DNA of 64,000 nucleotides from an uncultured Candidatus Saccharibacteria bacterium (GTDB lineage Bacteria > Patescibacteriota > Minisyncoccia > Phycocordibacterales > UBA2163), in assembly GCA_964626705.1 (NCBI GenBank), contig CAZVGL010000001.1, positions 4,441 to 68,440 of the forward strand, in the 5' to 3' direction. Made by a program: the position numbers and the translations under genes. This document shows positions 16,413 to 60,605 of the stretch, in pieces. Position 1 is the stretch's first letter. Every line of letters begins with the position of its first letter. The notes under the pieces are model-generated. The model saw only the letters and a list, made by a program, of their open reading frames with translations. It searched no databases and had not been told where the DNA came from.

Positions 16413-16475
16413 CTCTCCTCAAGGTCGCACCTATGAAGAAGGAGTTACGTATCTTCTTCATCGAGGAAAGACCTT
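16413..16475. repeat. dispersed palindromic intergenic repeat, copy R1
   Basis: ctcctcaaggtcgcacc...cgaggaaagacctt with an inner hairpin atgaagaag/cttcttcat. Confidence 0.75.
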
Positions 16476-16587
16476 AATTTATAGACGATAAAAAGCAATA
16501 CGATTGCTTTTTATTACCACACGGTTTTTATACAAAACAAATATTGTCACGATGTGGAAAAGACGCTAATATGGAAATAATAATGAC

Positions 16588-18255
16588 ATGGTCACTTTTG
16601 ATGAAACAAAAGTAGAGAAGAAGATTGCCCAACTCCACAGGAAAGAGGAGGAGGAATTAGCAGATATTCTATCAAACAAATATGGTTTGCAGTATATTGA
16701 CCTTTCTGGTGTTCCGATAAACACAGAAGCTCTTCAGCTCATCACAGAAGAAGTCTCTAAAGAAGCTGAAATGGCTATTTTTAAAAAAGTTGGCAAGAAG
16801 ATCTCCGTTGCCGTACGTTCACCAAACAATATAAAAACAAAAGAAGTGGTAAAAGAGCTTGAAGAAAAAAACTATCTTCCCACACTCTTCATGGCTTCTT
16901 CAAACAGTATTAACCGTGCTATTAAAAGATATGCTGACATCTCCTTTGCTGTTGAAACTAAAGCAGGGATGCTGGACATATCTGGAGAAGATATAAAAAA
17001 GATATTAACTTCACTAAACAGTGTTTCTGATATTAAAAACCTCATTGACGAAACATTGAAAATAAAAAAGGCTCACAGAATATCAAGAATACTTGAAGTT
17101 ATTATTGCTGGAGGTCTTGCAAAAAATGCATCTGACGTACATATAGAGCCAGAAGAAAATATAGTGCGTTTAAGATATCGTCTCGACGGTGTACTTATAA
17201 ACATTACAGATATTGATATAGAAACATATGACTTACTTTTATCAAGAATAAAACTTATATCCGGACTAAAGCTAAACCTAAAGAACACAGCACAAGACGG
17301 AAGGTTTAGTGTACAGATCGACGAAGATGATGTGGAAATAAGAACATCCATGCTTCCAGATGCATATGGTGAATCTATAGTTATGCGTATCCTAAACCCA
17401 AAGACGATATCTTTGTCGATGGAAGACTTGGGTATAGAAAAAAGGTTGTTTGATATCTTAGAAAGAGAAATATCTAAACCAAATGGCATGATACTAACAA
17501 CAGGACCAACTGGTTCTGGTAAAACAACCACACTATATGCATTCCTAAGAAGGATACAGACTCCCGAGAAAAAAATAATAACCATAGAAGACCCTATCGA
17601 GTACCATCTTCCAGGGATAGTGCAAACACAAGTAGACGATACAAATTATACATTTGGAAACGGCCTACGCTCAACTCTACGACAAGACCCTGACATCATA
17701 ATGGTGGGTGAGATACGAGATGAAGACGTAGCCTCAACTGCCATAAACGCATCCCTAACTGGTCATCTTGTATTCTCAACACTACACACAAACAATGCCG
17801 CTGGCTCATTCCCTCGCCTTATAGATCTTGGTATTAATCCTAAAGTTATAAGCTCTTCTATAAACGTAGTGCTAGCACAACGACTTGTAAGAAAGCTTTG
17901 TGAATCATGTAAAAAACAAATAGAAATAAGTGGCGACAAAAAGAAACAAATAGACAGGACTCTTGAAACTATTATTAATAAAGAAAATATTCAAGAGAAT
18001 ACTTCCATTATTTGGGAGGCCGGAGGATGTGACAAATGTAATAACACTGGATACAAAGGTAGGATCGGAGTTTTCGAAGCAGTTGTAATGGATGAAAAAG
18101 TAGAAGAGCTTGTAAAAGGTAGTGCGAGTGAAAGAGAGATATCTGAAGCTGCGATAAGCCAAGGAGTGCTTAGTATGCAACAAGACGGAGTACTGAAAGT
18201 CCTAAGAGGTGTCACGTCACTTGATGAGCTGGCGAGGGTGATAGAGCTGACCTAA
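16588..18255 (+). CDS. pilB: type IV pilus / type II secretion ATPase (PilB/GspE family)
   Basis: Walker A GPTGSGKTTTLYA, Asp box, His box and a C-terminal CxxC...CxxC motif; 555 aa. Confidence 0.9.
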   Translation: MVTFDETKVEKKIAQLHRKEEEELADILSNKYGLQYIDLSGVPINTEALQLITEEVSKEAEMAIFKKVGKKISVAVRSPNNIKTKEVVKELEEKNYLPTLFMASSNSINRAIKRYADISFAVETKAGMLDISGEDIKKILTSLNSVSDIKNLIDETLKIKKAHRISRILEVIIAGGLAKNASDVHIEPEENIVRLRYRLDGVLINITDIDIETYDLLLSRIKLISGLKLNLKNTAQDGRFSVQIDEDDVEIRTSMLPDAYGESIVMRILNPKTISLSMEDLGIEKRLFDILEREISKPNGMILTTGPTGSGKTTTLYAFLRRIQTPEKKIITIEDPIEYHLPGIVQTQVDDTNYTFGNGLRSTLRQDPDIIMVGEIRDEDVASTAINASLTGHLVFSTLHTNNAAGSFPRLIDLGINPKVISSSINVVLAQRLVRKLCESCKKQIEISGDKKKQIDRTLETIINKENIQENTSIIWEAGGCDKCNNTGYKGRIGVFEAVVMDEKVEELVKGSASEREISEAAISQGVLSMQQDGVLKVLRGVTSLDELARVIELT

Positions 18256-18274
18256 AGTTCTTTAAAATAAAAAG

Positions 18275-18320
18275 CTTCCAAGGGTAGCCCTTATAATTTA
18301 AAAAGGGCTACCCTTGGAAT
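18275..18320. other. long perfect hairpin (18-bp stem) after pilB
   Basis: cttccaagggtagccctt...agggctacccttggaat. There is no clear T-run on the plus strand. Confidence 0.4.
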
Positions 18321-18338
18321 CAATCAATATATCGAAAT

Positions 18339-18500: not shown

Positions 18501-18577
18501 AGTGAAGTGTGCTTTTTTAAAAGTCTGGCCGAGTACAGCGAGGGTATCCGAGGACTTTTGAAAAAAGTACATTTCAC
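18501..18577. repeat. palindromic repeat family 2, copy A (upstream of ruvB)
   Basis: gtgaagtgtgcttttttaaaagtctggccgagtacagcgagggtatccgaggacttttgaaaaaagtacatttcac. Termini are inverted: gtgaaatgt/acatttcac. Confidence 0.7.
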
Positions 18578-19668: not shown

Positions 19669-19748
19669 GTGCAGTGAAATATGCTTTTTTAAAAGTCTGG
19701 CCGAGCATAGCGAGGGAGCCCGAGGACTTTTGAAAAAACATATTCCAC
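19669..19748. repeat. palindromic repeat family 2, copy B (downstream of ruvB)
   Basis: About 88% identical to copy A and in direct orientation. It overlaps the N-terminal extension of the track ORF for yebC. Confidence 0.7.
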
Positions 19749-21378: not shown

Positions 21379-21384
21379 TCTTAT

Positions 21385-21439
21385 CGCTCCTCAAGGTCGC
21401 ACCTCTCCCGTCGCAAGCTCCTCCTCGAGGAACGACCTT
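21385..21439. repeat. dispersed palindromic intergenic repeat, copy R2
   Basis: cgctcctcaaggtcgcacctctcccgtcgcaagctcctcctcgaggaacgacctt. Confidence 0.75.
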
Positions 21440-21581
21440 ATAAATAAACAAGTTGTCCACAGCAAAATTAGCAAGGTATTGCAAAAAAATATAGATTTGA
21501 TAAAAATATAGAGCTAGGCCTAAATACAGTAATTCAGATAGGCTGGGTCGTTTAAAAGATAATTATATAAACACAAAATAT

Positions 21582-21695
21582 ATGCAAGAAGATACAATGC
21601 TTCACGAAGATGAAGTTATGAACATGGAAGAAGGTGAAATGGAGAACGACGAAGAAGTTTCAGCTGACGAAGAGGAAACTGAAGACGAAGAATAA
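21582..21695 (+). CDS. candidate small acidic protein (37 aa)
   Basis: MQEDTMLHEDEVMNMEEGEMENDEEVSADEEETEDEE, immediately followed by a strong terminator. No Shine-Dalgarno sequence. It falls below the ORF-track length cutoff. Confidence 0.25.
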   Translation: MQEDTMLHEDEVMNMEEGEMENDEEVSADEEETEDEE

Positions 21696-21697
21696 AT

Positions 21698-21741
21698 AAA
21701 AAAACACCCCGTCGCTTGCAAGCGACGGGGTGTTTTTTTAT
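21698..21741. terminator. strong bidirectional terminator
   Basis: CACCCCGTCGCTTGCAAGCGACGGGGTG flanked by A7 and T8 runs, between the small ORF and tyrS. Confidence 0.75.
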
Positions 21742-22958
21742 TTTACTTTTACTTTTAAGAATCTTCTTTTACCTATCTTTAGGGTAACATCTCTTGTTAT
21801 AACAAAATTCGGGTCAGTAATTTTTTCTCCATTCATTTCAGAGACAGCGCCACCTTCAACCAATCTTCTTAATTCTGATTTTGATTTAACAAACCCCCTA
21901 ACTGCATAATAAAGAGTTGCGTTTTCCTTAACACAGACTTCATCAACATCTTCTGGTACACCGCCACCACTAAAAGTATTTGTAAAGTTATCTTCAGCAC
22001 TCTTTGCTTTTTTCTCTCCGTGGTAAATAGTGACTATTTCTCTCGCCAACCTCATCTTTATATCTTTTGGATTCACACCGCTATCTAATTCTTTTTTTAC
22101 ATCCTCTATCTCACTTGTAGAAACATTCGTCGCAAGATCAAATCCAGAAAGTATCATGCCATCAGTCCAGCTCATCACTTTCCCAAACATTTCATTCTCA
22201 CTGTCCTGAAACGTAATCATATTACCTGTAGTTTTACCCATCTTCACACCAGAAGTATCTTCGAGGATTTTCATCGTTATAACAAACTTTTCTTTTTGTA
22301 ATATTTGCTTCATCAAAGTTCTTCCTGTAAGCATATTAAACGTCTGATCATTACCACCGATCTCACCATTTACTTCCATAGCAACAGAGTCATACCCTTG
22401 CATAAGTGGATACAAAAACTCATGTATGTAGATAGGCTTTTCTTGCTTTTGCCTTTCTTCAAACATATCTCTTTTTAACATCTGCTCTACTGTCATGTGC
22501 GACGCAAGCTCAAGCACTTCTTCAAAGTCCATCTTTGAAAGCCACTCTGAATTATATTTTATTTCTGCCCTATTCTCTCCATTAAATTTTAAAAACAAAG
22601 ACGCTTGCTTTTTGTACAATTCTGCATTATCAAGCACTTCTTTTTTTGTTAGCTTTTTTCTAAGTGAAGTTTTATCTGTCGGGTCACCTATCATACCTGT
22701 AAAATCTCCTACTAACAAAATCACTTTATGACCAAGTTTTTGAAACTCTTGTAGCTTTTTCAAAATAATAGCATGCCCAAGGTGAAGTGTCGGCCCAGTT
22801 GGGTCTATACCTATATACATACTCAATCTCACACCTTTCTTAAGCTGTGCTTCCAAAAACTCACGGCTCGGATAAATATTCTCAACACTTCTATCTAAAA
22901 AATCTTGAATATCTCCCTCATCTGTACTTATTTTATTTTCTTTAGTTTCCCAAAACAT
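21738..22958 (-). CDS. tyrS: tyrosine--tRNA ligase
   Basis: HIGH motif (PTGPTLHLGH), KMSKS-like KMGKT, and a C-terminal S4 domain; 406 aa. Confidence 0.95.
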   Translation of the reverse strand: MFWETKENKISTDEGDIQDFLDRSVENIYPSREFLEAQLKKGVRLSMYIGIDPTGPTLHLGHAIILKKLQEFQKLGHKVILLVGDFTGMIGDPTDKTSLRKKLTKKEVLDNAELYKKQASLFLKFNGENRAEIKYNSEWLSKMDFEEVLELASHMTVEQMLKRDMFEERQKQEKPIYIHEFLYPLMQGYDSVAMEVNGEIGGNDQTFNMLTGRTLMKQILQKEKFVITMKILEDTSGVKMGKTTGNMITFQDSENEMFGKVMSWTDGMILSGFDLATNVSTSEIEDVKKELDSGVNPKDIKMRLAREIVTIYHGEKKAKSAEDNFTNTFSGGGVPEDVDEVCVKENATLYYAVRGFVKSKSELRRLVEGGAVSEMNGEKITDPNFVITRDVTLKIGKRRFLKVKVK

Positions 22959-22989: not shown

Positions 22990-25536
22990 ATGAAACTCAT
23001 AATGTCGGGAAAGAAGCGTCGAAAAAGAGATAGCCTATTTGGCAAAACACTTCAACTGGTGATAATTATCGGGCTTTTTGGTTCTGGGATAATCTTCCTT
23101 TGGGTATCCTCACTTTCTATACCCGAGCTTGATTCGTTCGAGAAACGAAAAGTTAGACAGTCTACCAAGATCTACGACAGGACAGGAGAAATACTTCTAT
23201 ACGACGTCCATGAAAACATACAGAGGACAGTTATCCCTCTTACTGAAGTTTCACGTAATGTTAAGAACGCGGCAGTTGCTATCGAAGATGCAGAGTTTTA
23301 TGAACACAACGGCATACGACCAAGGGCAATCTTACGAGCTATACTTGTAAACCTTGGACTAAAAAGCGGTTACTCAGGACAAGGTGGTTCTACTATCACA
23401 CAGCAAGTTGTAAAGAACTCCATACTTACTTCTGATAAAAAGATATCAAGGAAGCTTAAAGAGTGGATCTTGGCACTTAAGCTTGAGAAAGAACTTACGA
23501 AAGAAGAAATACTCGAACTTTATCTTAACGAATCTCCATACGGTGGAAATATTTATGGAATAGAAGAAGCTAGCCAGCTATTTTTTGGCAAAAGTGCAAC
23601 TGACATAACTCTCGCAGAGTCAGCATACTTAGCAGCACTACCTCAAGCTCCGACTTTTTACTCACCATATGGCAATAACAGAGATGAGCTAGACGAAAGA
23701 CAAGACCTTGTACTACAAAAGATGTTTGAGAACGGCTTCATAACCAAAGAAGAGCACGAAGGTGCGAAAGAAGAAATTATCGCATTTCAACCACGGCACG
23801 ACACAGGTATAAATGCCCCACACTTTGTATTTTATGTAATAGAATATTTGGAAAACAAATACGGCAAACGTGCAGTGGAAGAAAAAGGCTTTAAAGTTAT
23901 AACCACACTAGACTTTAATCTCCAACAAAAAGCAGAGGAGATAATAAACAAGTTTGCACTTGAAAACGAAGAAAAGTTTAATGCTAAAAACGCAGGACTT
24001 GTAGCAACAGACCCAAAGACTGGTCAGATACTTGTGATGGTCGGCTCTCGTGACTACTTCGACGAAGATATAGATGGCAACTTCAACGTAGCAATAAACC
24101 CAAACAGGCAACCTGGGTCTGCATTTAAACCATTTGTATATGCAACAGCTTTTAATAAAGGGTACACACCAGACACGACTGTGTTTAACTTGAAAACACA
24201 ATTCCAAACCACATGTGAGCCAGAGGACCTACATGTTGATGAGAACGACGAAAGTAAAGCGGAATGTTATTCACCCGTTAACTACGACGGAGTATTTAAT
24301 GGACCGATGACATTTAGAGATGCTCTAGCTCAGTCTGTGAACGTACCTGCAGTAAAAGCTCTTTACCTTTCAGGACTTCGAGACTCACTTCGCACAGCAA
24401 AAGATATGGGTCTTAAAGGTCTGACAGATGTAAGCAGATACGGACTTACTCTCGTACTTGGTGGTGGAGAGGTATCACTGTTAAACATGACAAGTGCTTA
24501 TGGTGTGTTTGCAAATGAGGGTGTGCGTAACGAGCCAGTGAGTATTTTACAAGTGGAAGACGGTGCCGGGAATGTCATAGAAGAGTTCACGCAGAGAAGT
24601 GAGACCGTACTTCCCACAAACACCGCATTGCAGATATCAGACATACTCTCTGACGAAGAAGCACGAGCTCCTGCATTTGGACGACATTCATATTTATACT
24701 TTGACGGCAGAGACGTAGCTGTAAAGACAGGAACTACGAACGACTACCGTGACGCGTGGATCATAGGCTACACACCCAACATCTCAGTAGGTACATGGGC
24801 AGGAAACAACGACAATAGCTCCATGGAAAAGAAAGTGGCGGGCTTTATAGTCGCACCTATGTGGAATGCATTTATGCAAGAAGTATTACTAGCAACAGAC
24901 GACGAGAAGTTCAAGAAACCAAATGAAGTAGATAAAAACACTTTAAAGCCAGCACTAAAAGATGTATGGAAAGGTGGTGTGGAATACACTGTCGACAGTA
25001 TCTCTGGTAAGTTTGCAACACAATACACACCAGAAGAAACAAAGATCAAAAAAGTTCTTACAGACATCCACTCTATTCTCTACTGGGTAGACAAGACTGA
25101 TCCGAACGGCCCTAACCCAAAAAAGCCTGAGGAAGATTCGCAGTTTAAGTTCTGGGAATACCCTGTAGAAAAGTGGCGTACTGAACAAGGTTTTGCATCT
25201 ACCACAACAAGTGGGCTTCCTACAGCAAATGACGATGTACACAAGCCAGAGTTTGCACCTAGGATCACTATCACAAACCCAAGGACAGATGTTACTTATT
25301 CAAAAGACAATAAAATAACTATAAGCACTATTCAGAGCAGTCGCTTCCCTATGTCTAAGATAGACATCTTTATAAATGACATATTTGTCGGCTCATCTAA
25401 AAAAGCTCCGTTTAGTTTTTCATTCTTACCAAGCGATCTGGATAATATAAAAAGTAAAAACCGATTAAAGATAATCGGTTACGACAATGTATTCAACCGC
25501 GGTGAGGTTGAGATAACTTTTGATGTAAATATTTAG
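22990..25536 (+). CDS. class A penicillin-binding protein (transglycosylase/transpeptidase)
   Basis: Glycosyltransferase motif EDAEFYEHNGI, transpeptidase motifs SAFKP and KTGTT, and an N-terminal TM helix; 848 aa. Confidence 0.9.
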   Translation: MKLIMSGKKRRKRDSLFGKTLQLVIIIGLFGSGIIFLWVSSLSIPELDSFEKRKVRQSTKIYDRTGEILLYDVHENIQRTVIPLTEVSRNVKNAAVAIEDAEFYEHNGIRPRAILRAILVNLGLKSGYSGQGGSTITQQVVKNSILTSDKKISRKLKEWILALKLEKELTKEEILELYLNESPYGGNIYGIEEASQLFFGKSATDITLAESAYLAALPQAPTFYSPYGNNRDELDERQDLVLQKMFENGFITKEEHEGAKEEIIAFQPRHDTGINAPHFVFYVIEYLENKYGKRAVEEKGFKVITTLDFNLQQKAEEIINKFALENEEKFNAKNAGLVATDPKTGQILVMVGSRDYFDEDIDGNFNVAINPNRQPGSAFKPFVYATAFNKGYTPDTTVFNLKTQFQTTCEPEDLHVDENDESKAECYSPVNYDGVFNGPMTFRDALAQSVNVPAVKALYLSGLRDSLRTAKDMGLKGLTDVSRYGLTLVLGGGEVSLLNMTSAYGVFANEGVRNEPVSILQVEDGAGNVIEEFTQRSETVLPTNTALQISDILSDEEARAPAFGRHSYLYFDGRDVAVKTGTTNDYRDAWIIGYTPNISVGTWAGNNDNSSMEKKVAGFIVAPMWNAFMQEVLLATDDEKFKKPNEVDKNTLKPALKDVWKGGVEYTVDSISGKFATQYTPEETKIKKVLTDIHSILYWVDKTDPNGPNPKKPEEDSQFKFWEYPVEKWRTEQGFASTTTSGLPTANDDVHKPEFAPRITITNPRTDVTYSKDNKITISTIQSSRFPMSKIDIFINDIFVGSSKKAPFSFSFLPSDLDNIKSKNRLKIIGYDNVFNRGEVEITFDVNI

Positions 25537-25560
25537 AAGCGAAGTGAAATAACGCGGGAA

Positions 25561-25626
25561 AAGGTCGTTCCTCGAGGAGGAGTGCAGCGAAGCGGAATGA
25601 CGGGAGAGGTGTGACCTTGAGGAGTG
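25561..25626. repeat. dispersed palindromic intergenic repeat, copy R3 (opposite orientation)
   Basis: aaggtcgttcctcgaggaggagtgcagcgaagcggaatgacgggagaggtgtgaccttgaggag. Confidence 0.75.
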
Positions 25627-25890
25627 TTAGTGTATATCTCTAATAGTCTTCTTATAAGTTTTGAGTTTTTCTTTTAGGTTTTCCATAACCTGTTTTTTTC
25701 GTAAAAAGATTTCGTTTTTTATTATTGGATCAGTAGATATAAAAACAGTGCCATTGCGTACATCTATATCCCCTTTTTCTATATCAACCCCAACCACATC
25801 TTTCACAACAGAAACCAGCTCATCTTTCACAAACTTATCTGGAGGAGTAATGTTTTTAAACTTTGATAAATAGTCGCTGATGTTGAACAT
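25627..25890 (-). CDS. DUF721 (RemB/DciA-like) small protein
   Basis: 87 aa. The pattern ...VSVVKDVVGVDIEKGDIDVRNGTVFISTDPIIKNEIFLRKKQVMENL resembles DUF721, which is typically encoded near dnaN. Confidence 0.45.
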   Translation of the reverse strand: MFNISDYLSKFKNITPPDKFVKDELVSVVKDVVGVDIEKGDIDVRNGTVFISTDPIIKNEIFLRKKQVMENLKEKLKTYKKTIRDIH

Positions 25891-27284: not shown

Positions 27285-27353
27285 AATTCACTTTGCATAC
27301 CATATCAAATATAACCATTTTGTCAAGTCTATCGATGGGGTGGGTGAAATAGA

Positions 27354-27402
27354 AAAACCCGTGTTGGTAGCTGGGTTTCTCCATCTACCAACACGGGTTT
27401 TT
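27354..27402. terminator. strong bidirectional terminator downstream of dnaN
   Basis: AAAACCCGTGTTGGTAG...CTACCAACACGGGTTTTTT. Confidence 0.7.
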
Positions 27403-27589
27403 TGTTTTCACACCTAATAATAAGTGCGACATCTTGCACAAACGAAAGCTTTTAAAAATCTAAAAAGTATGAGTACCGGCTTTCTAGGCCTAAAAGATTC
27501 TAGTTCACAAATATTATGAACTCCAGTAGAAACTCTTTTAGAATTACTCCAGAACATCATCCGATAAATCCAATATGTGTGTAATCCAT

Positions 27590-27628
27590 CTTCGCATCTT
27601 TTTCATCGAGGAAAGACCTTTTCCCGCT
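27590..27628. repeat. truncated half-copy of the dispersed repeat (R4)
   Basis: ...atcttcgcatctttttcatcgaggaaagacctt matches the right half of R1. Confidence 0.5.
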
Positions 27629-27641
27629 ATTTAACGAATTC

Positions 27642-33463: not shown

Positions 33464-33465
33464 AA

Positions 33466-33530
33466 CCTTCGCTCCTCAAGGTCTCACCTTCGCTTGAATG
33501 AAGTGGAGCGGAGGTGAGTCCTTGTGGAGC
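33466..33530. repeat. dispersed palindromic intergenic repeat, copy R5 (variant)
   Basis: ccttcgctcctcaaggtctcaccttcgcttgaatgaagtggagcggaggtgagtccttgtggag. Confidence 0.65.
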
Positions 33531-33653
33531 ATAAACAAGTTTTCCACACCTATTTCTAAGGGTATTGCTTAAATGGTGGCTTAATATATAATTATCCTAT
33601 AGTAATAAATCGGTCGAGTTTAGTAAGTACATAAATTCATACCATTACATATT

Positions 33654-42890: not shown

Positions 42891-42932
42891 ATACTTGCAA
42901 AAAGTGTAGTTTTCTGCTATTATATACAGGTT

Positions 42933-43327: not shown

Positions 43328-43360
43328 TACATTTATTTATTTTAATTAAACATTTTTAAT

Positions 43361-45763: not shown

Positions 45764-45773
45764 TTTAAAAAAA

Positions 45774-45826
45774 CAAAACACCACCGAATTTGTAGAAACG
45801 AATTCGGTGGTGTTTTGTTTTTGCGC
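45774..45826 (+). terminator. rho-independent terminator
   Basis: AACACCACCGAATT...AATTCGGTGGTGTT plus a T-run. Confidence 0.7.
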
Positions 45827-49080: not shown

Positions 49081-49317
49081 TTTTGTGGCAAAAAGTGTCC
49101 AAAATGCTGTATTTGTCGCCTGATTCTTGGTAGGTCTATGAGGAAGATCAGGGTCTTGATTAGTGGGTATGATATGTCTTGTTTTATTGCGACAATGCTA
49201 GTCTTTCTAGAATATCTGGCTTTGTTAAGCCATAAAGAAAACTGCTACCGTTCAGTATTTCACTACTATACCCCCGTCAGATATAAAGTCAATAGAGTTA
49301 TCCACCATGCCATAAAA

Positions 49318-50079
49318 CTATTTTTCAATCAATTTTGTTGCTTTTTCAAGTCTAGTTTTCCACACTATTTCAAAAATTTGTTTCATAGTATCAGCTATGT
49401 CTTTATTTTCTATACGAGTAATTTGTAAATCTCTAAAAGAAAAGAAAGAAATAAAATCATCCCCCACAGTCACAGAAATATTGGCAGAATATTCATCAAG
49501 TGGAATAGTTTTTAGTTGACGATTATATTTCCCATCAGTCTTTCTAGCCCAATCAAGATTGGGGTGGTCTGGCACGATCCCTCGCATTCTATTATTATTT
49601 TTCTTAAAATCCTCCATATTTTCTATAAAAAATTCAACAAGTTCTTTTGAGGCATCACCAGAATGTGCATAGAAACCAAGCGTTTCTTTATCTTTCATCT
49701 TTCTGTTTTCCCATCTGAAGTTTTCTTTCACACCTTTCATCCCCTCAAAAAATAAAGTTCTTGGTTTTGGTTTTTCTCCTTCTTTCATTGCTTTAAGTTG
49801 TGGCAATATAGTTTTTGCTAAAGATATTCGCTCTTCAGCCATAGCAAATAGTTCTTCAGGAGGCTTTGCCACGAAGAGCTGTTTTCTTACTCTAGGTATA
49901 CGACTTGCAAGGCCTTTTTCTATGAGGTCGTCTAAGATTACATAAGTAGTAGGTTTTTTAAGACCAGATTCTTCCGCAATACCATATGCAGAAGTCCTTC
50001 CGCGCTTGAGTAAGGCGGTATACACGCGAGCTTCTTTGTCTGTTAGTCCTAGGTTTTGTAAGGCTTCTATTATAGTCAT
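49318..50079 (-). CDS. TrmB-family HTH transcriptional regulator
   Basis: LGLTDKEARVYTALLKRGRTSAYGIAEESGLKKPTTYVILDDLIEKGLA, an N-terminal TrmB-type wHTH. Confidence 0.65.
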   Translation of the reverse strand: MTIIEALQNLGLTDKEARVYTALLKRGRTSAYGIAEESGLKKPTTYVILDDLIEKGLASRIPRVRKQLFVAKPPEELFAMAEERISLAKTILPQLKAMKEGEKPKPRTLFFEGMKGVKENFRWENRKMKDKETLGFYAHSGDASKELVEFFIENMEDFKKNNNRMRGIVPDHPNLDWARKTDGKYNRQLKTIPLDEYSANISVTVGDDFISFFSFRDLQITRIENKDIADTMKQIFEIVWKTRLEKATKLIEK

Positions 50080-50300
50080 ATTTTTAGTATATATTATATA
50101 AATAAATAGTCAATAATTTTGATGATAAGTCATATAAAAGTGTAAATAATGGCTTATTTAAAGGGGGTACTAGGTACTTTTTAGTCATTAAATTAGACAC
50201 TAGACTTGACTTTTTAAACTCATCATGTATAATGTAGGCAGAATCATAAATTAAATAATTATCATTTCTTTTACACTTTTCTCTTGAAAGGAGAATTATT

Positions 50301-50777
50301 ATGAAAAAGATTTTATTGATCGAAGATAGCCAGCACCATGTAGACTCTGCAAAGAAATTTTTTGCAGACAAAGATGTGGAACTAAAAATAGTTTGTAATT
50401 TTGATGGGTTTCTTGGAGAACTTAGAAACTTACGTGCAAACTATGACGGCATCTTGTCAGACATCTTCATACCATATGATGATGAGCAGTTCACAGAGGA
50501 AGTTCCTGCAGGGGTTGGGATTTTCTCAATATGTTCTGCTAGAGCGATTCCCTGCATTCTTGTTACAGCAGGACATCATCACGGTCAGAAATACCATTGG
50601 ATAGGATCTATGGTAACCCGTCTTGTTGGAGATGGTCGGCATGTACTTGTTGACACTAAAAAGAGTGGACATTATCTGGGCGACAAGGAGCTGGATGAAG
50701 ATTCTCCAGAGAAAAACTGGAGTCGCGCATACGAGAGTCTTTTGAAAGAGATCTCTCGAATCCCAGTCACAGGATGA
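50301..50777 (+). CDS. stand-alone CheY-like receiver (REC) domain protein, possibly atypical
   Basis: MKKILLIEDS..., GILSDIFIPY (phospho-acceptor Asp context) and ILVTAGHHH (T/A position). No output domain. Confidence 0.4.
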   Translation: MKKILLIEDSQHHVDSAKKFFADKDVELKIVCNFDGFLGELRNLRANYDGILSDIFIPYDDEQFTEEVPAGVGIFSICSARAIPCILVTAGHHHGQKYHWIGSMVTRLVGDGRHVLVDTKKSGHYLGDKELDEDSPEKNWSRAYESLLKEISRIPVTG

Positions 50778-51103
50778 TGAGATATCTTATATTTTATAAT
50801 AATTTTCTAAGGAGAAAAAAGTGAAGTAGACCAGAAAAAAAGTCCCCCTGGGCGAAGGCGTACAAACGTCTCGGCAACATAAAGCACACGCTATTTGTAG
50901 AGATAAGGTCTCTTAAAAAACCTTTCTGTATTGAGATGTGTATCTCAACTGATGATTCCGAAAGGATGAAACAGAATGCTCCCTGTTTGCTCAAGAGCAT
51001 AGCGATTGATTTGCAAACAGCAGTCCTGTTAAAGGTTCCCGATAGTTCTTTAAATTTAAAATTAAATATTTCTTTTAACTTTTCTCTTGAAAGGAGAATT
51101 GGA

Positions 51104-51409
51104 ATGAACTTGTTAAGTGTATATTTAGAAAATGATATTAAAGAAGCAATTAAAAACAAAAGGATGAACGAAAACCAGGTAAAGCAAACGATGAATGATG
51201 CCGCAAAGGAATACATAGATCAGTTTAGCGACAAGTCGCACAAATCAAATGCCATAGCGATAAAGTTGTTTTTATCAGGAGACTTTATAACTTGTGACTT
51301 TGAGAGATTTACGAAAGAGGCAGTAGAGATAGCTAGAAAAAAAGGTATTGAGGCAAAAAACTATTTTGAAATTCTTTTAGAAAAAGTTAGAGAGGGGAAT
51401 AAAAAATGA
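51104..51409 (+). CDS. small hypothetical protein (101 aa)
   Basis: Start at the Met preceded by ttttctcttgaaaggagaatt, the same 5' context as 50301. Its stop overlaps the next start (ATGA). Confidence 0.4.
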   Translation: MNLLSVYLENDIKEAIKNKRMNENQVKQTMNDAAKEYIDQFSDKSHKSNAIAIKLFLSGDFITCDFERFTKEAVEIARKKGIEAKNYFEILLEKVREGNKK

Positions 51410-51801
51410 AAACTGAAAAAACTGTTAAGAAGGCCTTAAGAGTAAAATGTCATCTTTGTGGAAAAAGAATGGCGGTTCAGCAAGGAACCTTAGATGTTGG
51501 TCCATATACGTGCGAAAACTGTTTTGACGAGATTAATAAAGGATCAAGAAAATTTAAAGTGCATTGGGGAAGCGAAGTAGATAAGGAAATTGAGATATTG
51601 AAGTTTAAAGCTGTTGCTCAAGAGAAATCAATGAAACTCTGTTGTAGTAATAAGAGTAAATGCGGTATGGATACACATGACGTTGGCGATGTACTTGTAT
51701 TCTTTGATGTAAATGTACGATTTTCTGACGGAAAAGAATTTCATTACGATGGATGTTGCCACATAATTCCACCTATTGAGTACTGGTGTGTTGCGTCTTA
51801 G
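51406..51801 (+). CDS. Cys-rich (zinc-ribbon-like) hypothetical protein
   Basis: CHLCGK...CENC N-terminal ribbon plus CCSNKSKC and GCCH motifs. Translationally coupled to the upstream small gene. Confidence 0.45.
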   Translation: MKTEKTVKKALRVKCHLCGKRMAVQQGTLDVGPYTCENCFDEINKGSRKFKVHWGSEVDKEIEILKFKAVAQEKSMKLCCSNKSKCGMDTHDVGDVLVFFDVNVRFSDGKEFHYDGCCHIIPPIEYWCVAS

Positions 51802-51880
51802 AAAGGGGGCGGATAGATTTTACAATAAAAGGTAAAATTTATTCGCCTTTTGTTGTTTTTATTATGTTATTATTTTACAT

Positions 51881-52831
51881 ATGTCTAAGTTAGAACAAGA
51901 CAAACAAATAAAAGTAAATAATGAAAATATTACTACAATATTAAGATTTTACGATATTACAAAATTTACTTACCGTGAAATAAAACAAGGTATTGAAAAT
52001 ACATCTCTATATATTGAAGAAGACAATAAAAAATATGTATTAAGAATTTATCGCGCTGACAGTAAGACTGACAAAGAGATTTGTTTTGAGCTTGAATTCC
52101 AAGATTATTTACGCAAACACAAGATTCCTATTCCTATCATATATAAAAATATAGATGGAAATGAATTAAGTATTATAGAGTTAGGTAGCACAAAATGGCA
52201 AGTAATCTTAATGGAATTTTGTAAAGGTGATATAGGAATCTCAAACATTACCTATAGTAATCAGTTAATACATGAACTTGCCACGATTCAGTCAAAGATG
52301 CATAAGCTTGGAGTGGTTTTTTCTAAAAAATATCCGTGTGAAAATAAATGGAAAAATCTAAAAGATTCTTACGTAATAAAAATCGATGTAAATAAATATT
52401 CCGATAGAATAAAAAGTTTTCTTCAAAGATCTAATTCATTTTCATATATATTACCTACAGAAATTACATATGGATACAATCATTTAGATATTGATTTTGA
52501 TGGCAATGTTATTGTTAATAATGACACTATTTCTGGAATTATAGACTTTGATGATCTTAAGTATTCACCAAATATCGTGTGTTTGGGGTATACACTTTGG
52601 GGTATCCTATTTGATTATGGAATAGATGAAATGAATACGTATTTAAAAAAATATCAAGAATTACATCCATTAAATCAATTTGAAATGGAAGCACTTCCAC
52701 AGTGCATATTGTTTAGAAATTATACGATCGGAGTACTTAATCGTTTATTTGAAGGTAGCGACGAAAAAATAGAGAAAATTATTAAACTTGAATCAGAGAT
52801 TCCTAGGTTGTTTAATTCATACAATCTTTAA
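51881..52831 (+). CDS. aminoglycoside/choline-kinase-like phosphotransferase (APH family)
   Basis: Brenner-like HLDIDFDGN and DFDD motifs with N-lobe K (YVLRIY). Very low GC, about 27%. Confidence 0.55.
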   Translation: MSKLEQDKQIKVNNENITTILRFYDITKFTYREIKQGIENTSLYIEEDNKKYVLRIYRADSKTDKEICFELEFQDYLRKHKIPIPIIYKNIDGNELSIIELGSTKWQVILMEFCKGDIGISNITYSNQLIHELATIQSKMHKLGVVFSKKYPCENKWKNLKDSYVIKIDVNKYSDRIKSFLQRSNSFSYILPTEITYGYNHLDIDFDGNVIVNNDTISGIIDFDDLKYSPNIVCLGYTLWGILFDYGIDEMNTYLKKYQELHPLNQFEMEALPQCILFRNYTIGVLNRLFEGSDEKIEKIIKLESEIPRLFNSYNL

Positions 52832-52992
52832 AGACAATATAAAAAATGTGAAAATCTGTATTTTTTAGTAGTTTTTCACGATTTTGTTACGTGATTTGTT
52901 GAAAAATACTGCCGCTAGGTCAAACCTAGCGGATTTATTCTTTCTAGGTCTTTTTTGATTGACAATGTCATTACATTGAATATAATATAAAT

Positions 52993-53271
52993 ATGGACTC
53001 AACATTACAAATAAGAATAAACAAAAGAACTAAAGAAAAGGCTAAAAAGGTATTTAATGACCTCGGTATAGACATGTCTTCTGGTGTGAAGTTATACCTT
53101 TCGCAGGTAATCAATACTGGCTCCATATTATTTTATCCCACTACTAAGAATGGTTTTTCTATGGCTAAAGAGCAAGAGATGATAGAAGAAGTAAATCAGG
53201 TTATTGATAATAAAAGAGGTAAATTATACAAAACCGCTGAAGAAGCTCATGTAGATATATTAAAGACATAG
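52993..53271 (+). CDS. type II antitoxin, RelB/DinJ family
   Basis: LQIRINKRTKEKAKKVFNDLGIDMSSGVKLYLSQVINTGSI is the DinJ pattern. Confidence 0.65.
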   Translation: MDSTLQIRINKRTKEKAKKVFNDLGIDMSSGVKLYLSQVINTGSILFYPTTKNGFSMAKEQEMIEEVNQVIDNKRGKLYKTAEEAHVDILKT

Positions 53272-53274
53272 TTT

Positions 53275-53556
53275 ATGTTTAAGATAAAAATTGCTCCCAC
53301 CTATAAGAGAGCTTTTAAAAGGTTGGTCAAATCAGGCAGAGCAAAAGACGTTAAAAAATTAGAAGGGGTTATAGGGCTCATCGCTTCTGGGCAGAAATTA
53401 GATAAAAAACATAAGAATCATTTTTTAACAGGTAAAATGTCGGAATTTCAAGAATGTCATATAAAAGATGATCTATTACTTATTTACTTTAAAAATAAAC
53501 AAAATTTAGTTCTAGTACTAATTAATACAGGTAATCATTCAGAATTATTTAGTTAA
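53275..53556 (+). CDS. type II toxin, YafQ/RelE family mRNA interferase
   Basis: ...HKNHFLTGKMSEFQECHIKDDLLLIYFKNKQNLVLVLINTGNHSELF is the YafQ signature. Lies 3 nt after the antitoxin. Confidence 0.65.
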   Translation: MFKIKIAPTYKRAFKRLVKSGRAKDVKKLEGVIGLIASGQKLDKKHKNHFLTGKMSEFQECHIKDDLLLIYFKNKQNLVLVLINTGNHSELFS

Positions 53557-53571
53557 AATATGCATTACAAA

Positions 53572-53652
53572 ACCTCTCCTCAATGTCCCACCTACGAAGG
53601 AGGAGTTTCGTATCTCCTTCGTCGTCTATCTGCGAGGAACAACCTTTTCCCT
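53572..53652. repeat. dispersed palindromic intergenic repeat, copy R8 (diverged)
   Basis: cctctcctcaatgtcccacctacgaaggaggagtttcgtatctccttcgtcgtctatctgcgaggaacaacctt. Confidence 0.6.
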
Positions 53653-53688
53653 AGATTTTTGAAATTTAATTTATGGTATATTACTTAA

Positions 53689-58195: not shown

Positions 58196-58205
58196 TTTTT
58201 AAAAG

Positions 58206-59969
58206 ATGAGTAAAAATATTTTTAAAAAAATAATATCCAGTATTCTAACAATCGCAATTTTTGCAATAAGTATTTTTGGTACTTTTAATATTAGTATTAC
58301 AGTTGCCGCAACAAAACCACCAAGGACTCAAGGATTGCCAGGATCAGGGACAAGTGGTAATCGTAATGAAATCATGACAGGGGCTGAAGGGGTAAATGCT
58401 GTTGGGGTAAATACAGCAACTGTGGTAGTTGATCAAGATGTTGTAGGTATGTTGTCACCAGTTGATAAATTAATTGATCAAGATGTTGTAGGTATGTTGT
58501 CACCAGTTGATAAATTAATTGATCAAGATGCTATAGGTATGTTGTCAGCAAATGATGCACAGATAAGTCAAGTAAAAAACAAAACAGCAGGGATTTTAAG
58601 TTCAAACCCTTTTGGAAACAGTATGGTTCCTACAGATGATGTAAAAGATAATTACAAAGAAAGGGTACAAGATTCTATTTGGTCACTTATGGCAAAAAGA
58701 GCTATAAGGATGATCACTACAAGTACTGTAAACTGGATAAATAATGGTTTTCAGGGTGGTCCAGCATATGTAACAGATCTTAACGGTTTTCTTCTTGATG
58801 TTGCAGATGATCAGACTAGTATCTTCATAGAGCGTCTAGGGCTTACAGATCTATGTAGTCCTTGGAAGTTAGACATACGAATTGCATTAGCAATGAGACA
58901 GGCAGCACCGTTTGACAGAGAAATCGCATGTACCCTCTCTGACATTGTGGCAAATATGGATGATTTTATAAATGGAGATTTCTCTCAAGGTGGATGGGCA
59001 GGGTGGTTTGAACTTACTACAAAACCACAAAATAACCCTTATGGACTTTATCTTATGACAGCATCTGAGCTTGACCAAAGGATAGCGGGTACACAACAGC
59101 GACAGACACAAATCCTTGATTGGGGTGATGGATTTCTTTCGTATGAAGAATGTGAAGACTTACCCGAAGGGTTTGGGGGACCACCGCGTTGTGAAATAGT
59201 AACACCGGGGACTGTTATTGAAAATCAATTAGACCATGTTTTGGGTACTGGTGTAAGGCAGTTAGAGCTTGCGGATGAATTTAATGAAGTAATAAATGCT
59301 TTAATGCAACAGCTTGTGGTACAAGTATTTACTGGAGTAGATGGATTGAGGGGTGTAAGTAGAAGTTATGGAGGTAACCCATCGTATACAAACCGTCTTT
59401 CAGCTACTGAAGATAATACTACGATAGGAAATGTCATAGCAAGTTCAGAGCTTGAGTTTGGAAGGGTGTTAAATGAAGAGTTAGTTTACCTGACAGCCAA
59501 AGACGGCTCACTTAAGAGTATTGAGGCGGCAGAAAACAGACTTTCTAGCTTGGTCGCATGTTACGACAATAAACTCGCGGATATCAGTTTGAATTTAACT
59601 ATTAGTGAAAAAACAATAGCTCTTGAGAGGAGAAACAGTGCCTCTTCTACTATAGATACACTCATCACACCGCGTAAGAATATTCTTATCACAGAAATAG
59701 ATTTTTCAAGTAGGGTTATATTGAAATTAGATTCATTGTTAACTAATATGCAAAACGCAACAAATCCAATTCAGCTTCAAGTACCTACAAGTGAGTTAGA
59801 AAGTATGCGCAGACAGGATATTCTAAGAGGTCCATATATATTTTCTGCAGAGCAGGAAAGGGTGGGATTGTTGAGCGAGATGAATGCACTTAACCAAGAT
59901 ACTGAGAATAAAATTACAGAATGTCAGGTATTCCCGCTGCTACCGCAGGGGCAACAGCAGAATCCATAA
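58206..59969 (+). CDS. large secreted hypothetical protein with internal 15-aa tandem repeats
   Basis: N-terminal TM/signal helix. DQDVVGMLSPVDKLI repeated. Q-rich C-terminus. Confidence 0.5.
   Translation: MSKNIFKKIISSILTIAIFAISIFGTFNISITVAATKPPRTQGLPGSGTSGNRNEIMTGAEGVNAVGVNTATVVVDQDVVGMLSPVDKLIDQDVVGMLSPVDKLIDQDAIGMLSANDAQISQVKNKTAGILSSNPFGNSMVPTDDVKDNYKERVQDSIWSLMAKRAIRMITTSTVNWINNGFQGGPAYVTDLNGFLLDVADDQTSIFIERLGLTDLCSPWKLDIRIALAMRQAAPFDREIACTLSDIVANMDDFINGDFSQGGWAGWFELTTKPQNNPYGLYLMTASELDQRIAGTQQRQTQILDWGDGFLSYEECEDLPEGFGGPPRCEIVTPGTVIENQLDHVLGTGVRQLELADEFNEVINALMQQLVVQVFTGVDGLRGVSRSYGGNPSYTNRLSATEDNTTIGNVIASSELEFGRVLNEELVYLTAKDGSLKSIEAAENRLSSLVACYDNKLADISLNLTISEKTIALERRNSASSTIDTLITPRKNILITEIDFSSRVILKLDSLLTNMQNATNPIQLQVPTSELESMRRQDILRGPYIFSAEQERVGLLSEMNALNQDTENKITECQVFPLLPQGQQQNP
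58431..58556 (+). repeat. 45-bp in-frame tandem repeat, about 2.8 copies
   Basis: gatcaagatgttgtaggtatgttgtcaccagttgataaattaatt appears twice, followed by a diverged partial copy. Confidence 0.85.
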
Positions 59970-60007
59970 AATCTGAATAAAAACAAAATGAAAAAACAAA
60001 AAACAAA

Positions 60008-60538
60008 ATGAAAAAAGCTAAAACAAAAACAAAAATAATCCCAAGTATAGAAATAGAGAGTAAGATTCTATTTATTAGAAACAAAAAAGTAATGCTTGAT
60101 AAAGATTTGGCGGTGCTTTATGGTGTAAAGCCTATTCGTCTAAGAGAGCAGGTAAAAAGAAATAAAGAACGGTTTCCAGAAGATTTTATGTTTCAGATTA
60201 CTAAAGATGAAGCAACTCTCTTGGTATCGCAAAATGCGATACCATCAAAAAAGAGTTTGGGAGGACATTTGCCCTATGTATTTACAGAACATGGTGCGTT
60301 AATGGCAGCAAATGTTATAAAAAGTAAAGCAGCCATAGAGGCAAGTATCGCAATAGTGAGAACCTTTGTAAAGTTAAGAGAAATGATGATGTCATACAAA
60401 GAATTACAAAAGAAGATAGAAGATATGGAGAGAAAATATAGTAAGCATGACAAACATTTTCAGATTATCTTTCAGACAATACAGAAAATGTTGAATCCGA
60501 CAGAACAACCAAAAACCAAAATTGGTTTTGGAACATAG
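60008..60538 (+). CDS. ORF6N-domain protein (phage/mobile-element-associated DNA-binding)
   Basis: KKVMLDKDLAVLYGVKPIRLREQVKRNKERFPEDFMFQITKDE matches the ORF6N signature. Confidence 0.55.
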   Translation: MKKAKTKTKIIPSIEIESKILFIRNKKVMLDKDLAVLYGVKPIRLREQVKRNKERFPEDFMFQITKDEATLLVSQNAIPSKKSLGGHLPYVFTEHGALMAANVIKSKAAIEASIAIVRTFVKLREMMMSYKELQKKIEDMERKYSKHDKHFQIIFQTIQKMLNPTEQPKTKIGFGT

Positions 60539-60549
60539 TATTTACGAAA

Positions 60550-60605
60550 AAGGTCGTTCCTCATCGTGTAGCGAAGCGGAACAGGGAGGTGCGACCTTGA
60601 GGAGC
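60550..60605. repeat. dispersed palindromic intergenic repeat, copy R9 (same subtype as R3)
   Basis: aaggtcgttcctcatcgtgtagcgaagcggaacagggaggtgcgaccttgaggagc. Confidence 0.75.

Follow-up and report, generated by a model that had tools for sequence, protein, structure and literature searches.

A hairpin-forming repeat family of Patescibacteria that behaves like small mobile DNA

The window (the whole 64-kb stretch analysed; its contig is no shorter than 297 kb) holds about 58 open reading frames, between which a palindromic repeat is dispersed in both orientations. Each copy listed in the preliminary description was found again: a covariance model (CM) trained on 42 copies (37 from other genomes) recovered, in an unfiltered scan of the whole window, ten copies that make up the same list (the half copy c4 only weakly), with all else at E≥0.3. 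The copies are real: the L-core pattern CTCCTCAAGGTCNCACCT matched 9 times in the window at ≤3 mismatches where 0.07 were expected from shuffles, and the R-core pattern GAGGAANGACCTT matched 18 times where 5.2 were expected. Most window copies sit 0–70 nt past a stop codon, in agreement with the earlier placement just 3' of genes. No two were identical, so that a very recent jump is undocumented.

The repeat unit is a long imperfect hairpin of 55–90 bp, with helices P1, P2 and P3 and a variable tip. Its 5' half runs through the variable stem P1, C-TCCTC, AAGGTC[G/T], CA and CCT[C/T] into the tip; the 3' half after the tip reads [G/A]AGG, AA, [C/A]GACCTT, TTCCC-G and then P1'. The consensus first proposed was real but too short, the conserved unit extending to (CG)CTCCTC...GACCTTTTCCCG(CG). 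P2 is flanked by two conserved unpaired pyrimidine loops, TCCTC opposite TTCCC. A small imperfect palindrome (AAGGT-CGC-ACCTT) makes up each arm; the flanks of the arms (CTCCTC vs TTCCCG) do not mirror one another as inverted copies. Instead of the two subtypes originally seen, the inner segment came in at least four kinds; further hairpins were nested in the tip (L016, L032, L022, L065), and some units were circularly permuted or perfectly symmetric (L025, L027, L048, L028, L044).

Four of the window copies are full units. Copy c3 (25548–25631, minus strand; 69.6 bits; P1 TAACAC/GCGTTA) lies between PBP1A (plus strand) and a convergent 87-aa ORF (minus strand). Copy c6b (42819–42894, plus; 60.6 bits) ends against the promoter-like TTGCAA of rpsO and stands head to head with the degenerate unit c6a (42749–42819, minus; 16.7 bits, E=0.037; outside the training set), so that the two units noted at 42762 are in opposite orientation. 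The rpsO ORF (42753–43199) was, as suspected, spuriously extended through c6, the gene call of the identical contig placing S15 at 42933–43199; the repeat upstream of yebC (19673–19738), for which the same had been said, belongs to a different family. Copy c7 (43265–43328, plus; 70.6 bits), in the gap from rpsO to a NYN-domain gene, is the shortest full unit, with a 13-nt tip and P1 TTTCGC/GCGAAA, and its minimum-free-energy DNA fold gives P1-P2-P3 (-12.8 kcal/mol, z -3.8). Copy c9 (60538–60611, minus; 59.9 bits) occupies the gap after the ORF6N gene, antisense to that gene and its neighbour; its P1 has 8 bp (GTATTTGC/GTAAATAC, one G.T pair included), and the DNA fold gives P1 and P2 (z -3.2).

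The other copies are altered. Copy c1 (16408–16483, plus; 24.9 bits, E=2e-4; outside the training set) is flanked by two terminator-like hairpins upstream of a pilB-like T2SSE gene; it retains the L core (16415–16432) and the R core (16463–16475) but has lost the 3' TTCCCG, and has a 9-bp inner hairpin (ATGAAGAAG/CTTCTTCAT) and a DNA fold of -12 kcal/mol (z -3.6). The inner hairpin of c8 (53569–53659, plus; 28.9 bits; outside the training set), 16 nt past the yafQ stop codon, is of the c1 type with two compensatory changes (ACGAAGGAG/CTCCTTCGT), and its P2 is degenerate. Copy c2 (21380–21448, plus; 53 bits), beginning 8 nt past the ruvC stop codon, is of the type whose inner part has a second loop module and has likewise lost the 3' TTCCCG. 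Copy c4 (27590–27626, plus; CM span 27595–27633) scored only 10 bits (E=2.4) and is indeed a half copy, 5'-truncated to an inner-hairpin remnant and the R core GAGGAAAGACCTTTTCCCG, 16 nt past the stop codon of dnaN. The copy listed at 33466 exists in another form than supposed: c5 (33465–33536; 23 bits on the plus and 16.7 bits on the minus strand), directly after the RNase Y stop codon, is a symmetric palindrome of the L core (33472–33489) and its reverse complement (33512–33529), with a DNA fold of -21.7 kcal/mol (z -6.9).

Covariation was seen in all three helices of the 42 aligned copies. Paired cells amounted to 91.3%; shuffling gave 79.4%, with none of 500 shuffles reaching the observed value, and pairing fell to 31–54% when the partner was slid by 1–3 columns. 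Among the copies, 21 had U-A and 19 had G-C at the P2 pair 21/66, while the P3 pair 27/60 was C-G in 34 and U-A in 7. In P1, six of the seven pairs varied on both sides, and 206 Watson-Crick pairs were counted vs 119±8.5 with flanks re-paired at random.

The complementary P1 arms bear features that would fit a copying of one flank onto the other. The region upstream of rpsO in JADHUX01 reads GAATACTTGCAAAA and has no element; by comparison with it, c6b has an ancestral 3' P1 arm (AATAC) and a new 5' arm (GTATT). Three copies (L008, L071, L032) show, in this order, a copy of the target, a spacer, the inverted arm, the element and another copy of the target. Element-anchored direct repeats scoring ≥9 numbered 4 on the right and 2 on the left, vs 0.45 expected on either side. 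Retention of P1 could also mean a host function, with most target duplications (if ever present) being gone.

The family was found in about 17 Patescibacteria (CPR) genomes, at 0–1 up to dozens of copies per genome (exact L cores: about 17 in JADHUX01, about 13 in JBHHYD01). The first account of a dispersed intergenic palindrome stands as to the palindrome; it had overlooked this phylum-wide distribution, as well as the P1 flanks, the covariation and the circular permutations. None of c1–c5 was present in the syntenic regions of four relatives about 80% identical (L081–L084), and a CM search of the syntenic 20 kb in these gave no match; in such empty-site comparisons the nearest relative has 87% PBP1A protein identity. 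Copy c1 was missing at the orthologous site of L082 and L084, c2 in L081 and L084 (where ATATCCACA directly follows the ruvC stop), c5 in L083, and c3 in all four and in the contig of P0002, where PBP1A and the 87-aa ORF overlap by 17 nt. Gain and loss of copies thus take place among genomes about 80% identical. Diverged genomes can also share an element site: JADHUX01 carries one at the PBP1A/87-aa ORF junction, same as c3, and this site, the rpsO 3' side, Tgt and LeuRS site 2 could represent function, hot spots or alleles that spread through recombination. One inner segment was found with unrelated flanks (L050 and L051), and one site with its flanks held different cores (L035/L051 and L037/L045). 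A CM search over 476 kb of other CPR loci gave seven matches, of which six were Tgt inserts and the seventh L145 (29.5 bits).

Copies were also found in frame, in both orientations, within essential genes, namely LeuRS (two sites, opposite to each other in orientation), Tgt, KsgA and RNase HII; in the last three a Pfam domain spans the insert. The motif is thus literally part of coding regions in homologues, a finding that had been named as counting against the family, but it is present there as insertions and not as conserved coding sequence. Tgt alleles with and without the insert interleave in the tree; the site holds the element in either orientation between common flanks (GAAAGC...GCTTTC), and among these L089 is chimeric. 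The net gain at coding sites was +42, +48 and +57 nt, i.e., 3–13 nt less than the core, and simple cut-and-insert is therefore not established.

We examined whether a structured RNA element selected for its fold (a 3'-UTR stabiliser, terminator, processing site or ribozyme-like motif), with copies functional in transcripts, could account for the family, and consider this unlikely. The covarying helices, the conserved internal loops, the variability of closing stem and tip and the circularly permuted forms resemble RNA families such as hammerhead and twister, and the window copies are mostly just 3' of genes. A canonical terminator (45769–45822) lies in the window between the dksA-like gene and comM; in JADHUX01 and JBHHYD01 its exact place is taken by an element, followed by a T run. 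However, orientation relative to co-directional genes was unbiased (11:10), one site bears both orientations, P1 mismatches were 12:12 for G.T vs A.C (no excess of G.U over A.C on either strand), Rfam held no match, and presence was patchy among close relatives. Type-B stems were weak or missing in the DNA fold (z -0.1 to -1.9), with no GC stem next to a U tract. Within the four enzymes, termination or cleavage would do harm; with in-frame copies both ways and some copies inside very short operon junctions, the terminator or processing role once suggested is unlikely as the raison d'être. From the 12:12 mismatches, the 11:10 orientation and the lack of an Rfam match, the repeat probably acts at the DNA level rather than the RNA level.

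That the repeats are true REP/REPIN sequences, substrates of a RAYT (Y1 HUH transposase) or IS200/IS605 TnpA whose gene lies in another part of the genome, also seems improbable. As in the REP/BIME/REPIN elements of gamma-proteobacteria, short imperfect palindromes are present in many copies and both orientations, frequently at gene 3' ends; two palindromic arms build a longer hairpin with compensatory changes, conserved single-stranded motifs adjoin the hairpins, and there is no fixed target duplication. The 64 kb is only part of the contig. In contrast to REPs, the CPR repeat has no GTAG-type head, its arm flanks are asymmetric, it has variable complementary flanks and circular permutations, it is often genic and in frame where REPs avoid genes, and it belongs to another phylum and an AT-rich reduced genome. 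No transposase or other dedicated enzyme was detected among the window ORFs; this includes Y1/RAYT (Y1_Tnp), whose absence had been reported, and tblastn, as a weak test, found no match in 1.1 Mb around 58 elements. Membership in REP/BIME was rejected on the missing head, the lack of a RAYT and the occurrence outside intergenic DNA, and the classical MITE on the lack of a fixed target-site duplication and of a parent IS; the earlier likening to REPs and MITEs holds for behaviour only.

Bacterial MITEs (Correia/NEMIS, ERIC, RUP, BOX) are similarly small, non-coding and multicopy with an inverted-repeat architecture, and can occupy operon junctions and fuse with ORFs, whereas the CPR repeat lacks IS-matching terminal inverted repeats and a constant target-site duplication (e.g., TA), its conserved parts being internal (the helices and two loops). 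The palindrome-associated elements (PATEs) derived from IS200/IS605 share two similar small one-strand hairpins, each beside conserved single-stranded nucleotides, and the lack of a target duplication; a single-strand intermediate, as in "peel and paste" transposition, is plausible for the CPR repeat. Unlike in PATEs, its left flank shows no conserved tetra- or penta-nucleotide target, its two hairpin modules pair together, and no TnpA was found. Rickettsia palindromic elements (RPEs) occur in frame in unrelated housekeeping genes as well as between genes, and the stretch of peptide that they contribute does not destroy the protein (PMC10969869). Compared by description, RPEs resemble the CPR repeat as palindromic selfish repeats of a reduced genome, with intergenic and in-frame genic copies and no known transposase, but they are about 100–150 bp and confined to Rickettsia, whereas the 55–90 bp CPR repeat of Patescibacteria has both orientations at one protein site and complementary flanks. 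In agreement with the first assessment of the consensus, neither Rfam nor a literature search provided a description of the family.

A retro-mobile SINE-like hairpin, whose transcript would be copied by target-primed reverse transcription while snap-back of the cDNA makes the inverted flank, is very unlikely: variable-length direct repeats (7–19 nt), one junction with additional nucleotides plus an inverted arm, and the 5'-truncated c4 and JADHUX01 copy after rpsO would fit, but the repeats occur at only about 12% of copies in modest excess, the flank-copy geometry lies on either side of the element (c3 vs L008, L071) and so gives no single priming end, there is neither promoter nor 3' tail, and the window ORFs yielded no reverse transcriptase. 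Selected binding sites or cruciforms for host proteins (nucleoid organisation, Xer-type recombination, replication), homogenised by gene conversion and not by transposition, hardly come into question despite loop sequences strictly conserved across CPR classes (which could also mean host function), fixed sites with swapped cores (L035, L051), a Xer-like recombinase gene (41224–42153) 0.6 kb from c6 and a dnaA/dnaN origin region close to several copies, since close relatives with all neighbouring genes lack the element, copy number is very uneven across genomes, coding sequences contain copies, and the repeat is unlike dif or attC core sites.

We favour, at a probability of roughly 0.7, that the family consists of small non-coding, non-autonomous mobile DNA elements defined by their folded hairpin, specific to and widespread in Patescibacteria. 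On the best reading they are like REP/REPINs, MITEs and RPEs in behaviour and belong to none of these. The hairpin is probably moved as a folded single strand: it would be recognised and moved in trans in that form or as a cruciform, and the conserved loops may be recognition or cleavage sites. Movement of this kind would account for circularly permuted units that still work and for the use of either strand. During or after integration, the strong hairpin may nucleate intrastrand template switching (snap-back or quasi-palindrome correction), which would copy one flank onto the other to give the variable stem P1, sometimes make the core symmetric (c5, L044) and sometimes flip it in place (the Tgt site). 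Such template switching, reportedly described by Ripley and by the Lovett laboratory in E. coli, improves imperfect inverted repeats by intrastrand copying; it fits P1 growth, the symmetric variants and the in-place flips, but is a mutational process and not an element family, and its action in the CPR repeat is suggested by these forms. Copies would survive only at near-neutral places: just past stop codons, now and then where a terminator hairpin would otherwise stand, or in proteins as additional loops of 14–30 residues. The family behaves like selfish DNA without earlier description, and not like a regulatory signal.

The left core of the element (18 nt, CTCCTCAAGGTCNCACCT) gave 9 matches within the window at no more than 3 mismatches, compared with 0.07 expected from shuffled sequence, and the right core, GAGGAANGACCTT, gave 18 compared with 5.2 expected, a total raised by the likeness between the right core and the left core's reverse complement; the copies thus stand apart from shuffled sequence. 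A covariance model, with 37 of its 42 training copies taken from other genomes, was run unfiltered over the entire window. Ten places came back and nothing more at E<0.3; these coincide with the dispersed repeat claimed in the preliminary description, and the same composite unit was read directly in the sequence at each position. Copies c1, c5, c6a and c8 scored 16.7–28.9 bits though they lay outside the training set. About 1% of the 64-kb stretch, a Patescibacteria (CPR) chromosome segment of 36% G+C carrying dnaA and dnaN, consists of this one hairpin family. A further copy had been placed upstream of yebC; the repeat there, at 19673–19738, belongs instead to a second hairpin family, whose two 66-nt window members (18501–18566 and 19673–19738, upstream of ruvB and yebC) are 89% identical and share the core TTTTTTAAAAGTCTGGCCGAG...CCGAGGACTTTTGAAAAAA, with outer flanks that differ between the two copies and are mutually complementary, as in the main family. 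Two other repeats were seen: a tandem triplication with a 662-bp period at 12800–14237 (100% and 92% identical stretches), encoding three paralogous 141–147-aa ORFs, and three tandem 45-nt (15-codon) repeats at 58426–58560 within a 587-aa ORF; none of these ORFs has a Pfam family.

Read along the pyrimidine-rich strand, the 5' half of the unit consists of a variable flank, (CG) C-TCCTC, AAGGTC[G/T], CA and CCT[C/T]; a variable tip of 8–90 nt follows, and the 3' half runs [G/A]AGG, AA, [C/A]GACCTT, TTCCC-G (CG) and a second variable flank. Three helices are formed: P1 from the closing C-G pair and the flanks, P2 from AAGGTCN with N'GACCTT, and P3 from CCTY with RAGG. Paired cells amounted to 91.3% across the 42 copies compared with 79.4% in column shuffles, none of 500 shuffles reaching the observed value, and they fell to 31–54% when the partners were slid. 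At the seventh P2 pair 21 copies had U-A and 19 had G-C, at the last P3 pair 34 had C-G and 7 had U-A, and changes on both sides were present in six of the seven P1 pairs. The P1 flanks are copy-specific in sequence yet mutually complementary; their first seven positions made 206 Watson-Crick pairs, compared with 119±8.5 when the 3' flanks were re-dealt among the copies. Two pyrimidine loops of 5 nt each (TCCTC and TTCCC) are never paired and are nearly invariant. For the class including c2, c3 and c6b the loop module is present a second time within the hairpin, so that an alternative view of the unit is a direct repeat of the 25-nt module CTCCTC-RAGG-N5-CCTY-TYCCCG. DNA folding energies were -8 to -22 kcal/mol (z of -3 to -7 for c1, c5, c7 and c9), the double-module copies folding weakly. 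Variants of the plan include perfectly symmetric units (c5 in the window and one at locus L044), an X2-X1 order variant at locus L028, other hairpins nested within the tips of some copies, and, with flanks that are likewise complementary, circularly permuted units (right core, small hairpin, left core) from two MAGs, one of Kaiserbacteria and one carrying the label Saccharibacteria.

One scan of 185,579 species-representative genomes for the exact left core yielded 73 stretches, about 40 of which were full elements in about 17 Patescibacteria genomes, with labels including Paceibacteria, Parcubacteria, Kaiser-, Taylor- and Nealsonbacteria, Microgenomates and some MAGs labelled Saccharibacteria. 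Copy number was very uneven between genomes, JADHUX01 and JBHHYD01 holding about 17 and about 13 exact left cores. The other left-core matches (single ones in Dehalococcoidales and others) had no right core and were taken as chance or as another conserved sequence. No element was found in viral contigs, the two matches there both lying in 60%-GC sequence with no right core after the match. In 476 kb made up of relatives of the window and of CPR loci found by searching for Tgt, the covariance model returned seven matches, six of them within tgt and the seventh at locus L145 (29.5 bits).

Four related loci (L081–L084), about 78–84% identical to the window in nucleotides and with conserved gene order around PBP1A, contained no element in the 13–22 kb corresponding to the c1–c5 segment. 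At the c3 site of these relatives (window region 22990–25890) a 17-nt overlap joins PBP1A to a conserved, convergent 87-aa ORF of unknown function, the two C-termini being encoded there on opposite strands of the same bases; the same overlap was seen, from gene coordinates only, for the PBP1A protein P0002 of an 87%-identical relative. Within the window c3 lies between PBP1A and the 87-aa ORF with a copy of the overlap region on either side, and JADHUX01, as distant from the window as L081–L084, carries an element at this junction in the same arrangement. Same-strain contigs (seven loci, 99.97–100% identical to the window, no indels) revealed no insertion polymorphism. Two locus pairs, L035/L051 and L037/L045, share site and flanks across two genomes and have different cores, and L050/L051 have one inner segment between unrelated flanks within a single genome. 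Just past the element insertion points we observed a DnaA-box-like motif, conserved across genomes and about 15–25 nt upstream of a promoter-like TTGCAA...TATAAT: TTATCCACA in the relatives, on the 3' side of ruvC (L081, L082, L084) or of rny (L083), and TTGTCCACA and TTTTCCACA in the window at about 21453–21461 and about 33540–33550. It could be a transcription-factor site. The stretch at about 49300–53650 (TrmB-like regulator, three small unknown ORFs, APH-family kinase, RelB/YafQ pair) is absent from the otherwise syntenic JADHUX01 contig L037, where the M23 peptidase gene adjoins uvrD. Copy c8 sits at the edge of this stretch, which is possibly a small variable island.

The family had been described as intergenic, which does not hold beyond the window, as copies also lie in-frame in LeuRS, Tgt, KsgA and RNase HII. 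LeuRS of JADHUX01 has two in-frame copies in opposite orientations: the first (...DFAI[APQGRTSFVASSSPRNDLFPQ]SIKVF...) is absent in nine close homologues, and the second (...DVE[KGLSSGNEVDGDETLGS]ILH...) is absent in seven homologues and present in two more distant ones. Pfam domains span the in-frame copies in Tgt, KsgA/RsmA, RNase HII and a second LeuRS. A metagenome scan for Tgt alleles gave 80 loci. 'Empty' alleles have a 5-residue loop between EHxKL and ALFGIVQGG; in 'filled' alleles the element occupies this loop in either orientation with identical flanks (GAAAGC...GCTTTC), and the allele at L089 is a chimera of both orientations. Filled and empty alleles are interleaved in the Tgt tree, and the flanking DNA of one filled/empty pair is about 94% identical (estimated from the alignment) with divergence locally raised at the site, which is compatible with spread of alleles by recombination. 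The net gain at coding sites was +42, +48 and +57 nt, 3–13 nt short of the core; either the coding events were not simple insertions, or loop lengths differed beforehand. The pyrimidine-rich strand is open in 86–92% of copies in each forward frame. A concatenated element-encoded peptide, used as query for in-frame copies, found no match; the 35-aa peptide encoded by c3 gave five weak and uninformative matches among 1.84 billion representative proteins, four of which, judged solely by their several matched stretches, are taken as low-complexity repeats. The tgt loop also receives another palindromic element, TCTGTCATTCCCGCGCAGGCGGGAATCCAGG (peptide SVIPAQAGIQ), in-frame at L019 (about 1130–1215), L014, L092 and L104, where it adjoins or replaces the main element. 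Across the 80 CPR Tgt genes the RTHxW-to-FGIVQGG stretch ranged from 22 to 84 residues, which marks the site as a hot spot for several unrelated insertions.

In behaviour the element appears closest, by analogy, to REP/REPINs, MITEs and above all the Rickettsia palindromic elements (RPE), and it probably falls outside the definition of each. Like RPE, which in a reduced genome also lie in-frame within genes (PMC10969869), it is inserted in-frame in unrelated protein genes as well as between genes; RPE, however, are about 100–150 bp and belong to Rickettsia, whereas the present element is 55–90 bp and belongs to Patescibacteria. The preliminary likening to REP/BIME or MITE sequences stands in part. 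As in the REP/BIME/REPIN-RAYT system, there is a short imperfect palindrome in many copies, with a two-arm hairpin evolving by compensatory change; but the GTAG-type 5' foot is missing, the flanks CTCCTC (5') and TTCCCG (3') are not reverse complements, and REPs are extragenic. The cognate Y1_Tnp gene, usually REP-flanked, was not seen by Pfam among the approximately 58 window ORFs, which bears out the earlier statement that the window has no REP-associated tyrosine transposase, nor by tblastn of 1.1 Mb with IS608 TnpA and E. coli RAYT, a weak test. The element is small, non-coding and multicopy like a MITE, but the IS-derived type has a fixed-length target-site duplication at every copy, and direct repeats here are not constant. 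As to the terminal inverted repeats that such a MITE shares with a parent IS, the termini here agree only in CGC/GCG, the 7-bp inverted arms are internal, and no IS was seen in the window ORFs or the loci examined. IS200/IS605 PATEs have a conserved short target 5' of the insertion and a TnpA (for which the same Pfam and tblastn searches were negative), whereas the left flanks here vary and complement the right flanks. Integron attC sites carry R''/R' boxes (RYYYAAC/GTTRRRY) and lie in a cassette array beside intI; the element consensus has no such boxes, its copies are scattered, and the sole tyrosine recombinase seen is Xer-like. TIGR arrays, considered for their CPR link and variable hairpin stems, are tandem alternating 8–12-nt repeats with 9-nt spacers beside a Nop-domain tas gene (PMC12045711), and element copies are dispersed singletons. 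The defining motifs of attC, dif, k-turn, hammerhead and twister were absent from the consensus on comparison by eye. The consensus had not been recognised among described CPR elements, and we likewise found no description in the searchable literature. We place the element among the small palindromic mobile repeats; as far as could be checked, its new features are flanks that vary yet complement each other, circular permutation, and switching of orientation in place.

We considered whether the family exists for a strand-specific RNA function. A weak terminator-like role may apply in some places. Between the dksA-like gene and comM, JADHUX01 and JBHHYD01 have an element in exactly the slot that a canonical terminator (45769–45822) occupies in the window. 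An intrinsic terminator is a GC-rich stem directly before a U tract, oriented with the upstream gene; the element does not have this form, given the internal loops at the stem base, weak type B folds, lack of orientation bias and copies within ORFs. Orientation relative to co-directional genes was 11:10, many copies fill operon junctions to within 3–17 nt of both ORFs, G.T and A.C mismatches in P1 were 12:12, and Rfam 15 at gathering score returned only 5 tRNAs, with nothing at E<2 around three copies. Together with the occurrence of both orientations at one site and the copies in essential ORFs, these results speak against the idea that the family owes its existence to a strand-specific RNA function. 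Long inverted repeats, perfect or nearly so and bounded by A and T runs, at 8995–9056, 21694–21743, 27344–27411 and 45769–45822, look like canonical bidirectional intrinsic terminators, which suggests that this genome uses ordinary terminators beside the element.

The complementary flanks could have come from insertion into a palindrome already present. The P1 palindrome is absent from the empty alleles of the c2, c3, c5, Tgt and LeuRS sites, and we do not favor this explanation, to which the 5–20% divergence of those alleles leaves some room. The alternative we favor is intrastrand template switching at the strong hairpin, by snap-back extension at integration, by later quasi-palindrome correction, or by both; this would copy one flank onto the other, and could also flip the core or render it symmetric. 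At c6b only the 5' arm is new; JADHUX01 shares the 3' arm AATAC, which is ancestral sequence from upstream of the promoter. Three loci (L008, L071 and L032) have the layout target copy, spacer, inverted arm, element, target copy, and c3 is the mirror image of this. Element-anchored direct repeats with score >=9 numbered 4 compared with 0.45 expected on one side and 2 compared with 0.45 on the other; they are variable (7–19 nt), occur in only about 12% of copies, and provide no constant target duplication. The window ORFs, about 18 of which have no Pfam family, gave no match in Pfam to a DDE or serine transposase or a reverse transcriptase, and the only recombinase is the Xer-like gene at 41224–42153; the element-rich MAG loci contain 142 ORFs without a homologue in the comparison set. 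The boldest reading, to which we give roughly one chance in four, is that these hairpins form a class of structure-defined mobile DNA without a transposase of their own. They would spread at replication forks or repair gaps in the form of folded single strands, through host enzymes or an unrecognised CPR enzyme, snap-back integration would leave an inverted flank duplication instead of a direct target duplication, and the element might flip or become symmetric in place. On the same reading the element would be a major source of lineage-specific peptide insertions in essential CPR enzymes (LeuRS, Tgt, KsgA, RNase HII), because its pyrimidine-rich strand is almost free of stop codons.

Tiny, tightly packed genomes are typical of CPR/Patescibacteria, and little mobile DNA is commonly ascribed to them. 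The one hairpin family studied here breaks up MAG assemblies and turns up in several CPR classes, and the covariance model could serve to mask or annotate its copies. The finding matters for gene calling, in which ORFs are spuriously extended, tRNA-synthetase domains missed and protein novelty inflated, and for the origin of 'CPR-specific insertions' in conserved proteins. The complementary variable flanks, circular permutations and in-place flips point to propagation or mutation based upon the hairpin. Essential CPR enzymes tolerate and keep 14–30-residue insertions of selfish-DNA origin, which places the phenomenon known from Rickettsia palindromic elements in a second, unrelated group of bacteria with reduced genomes.
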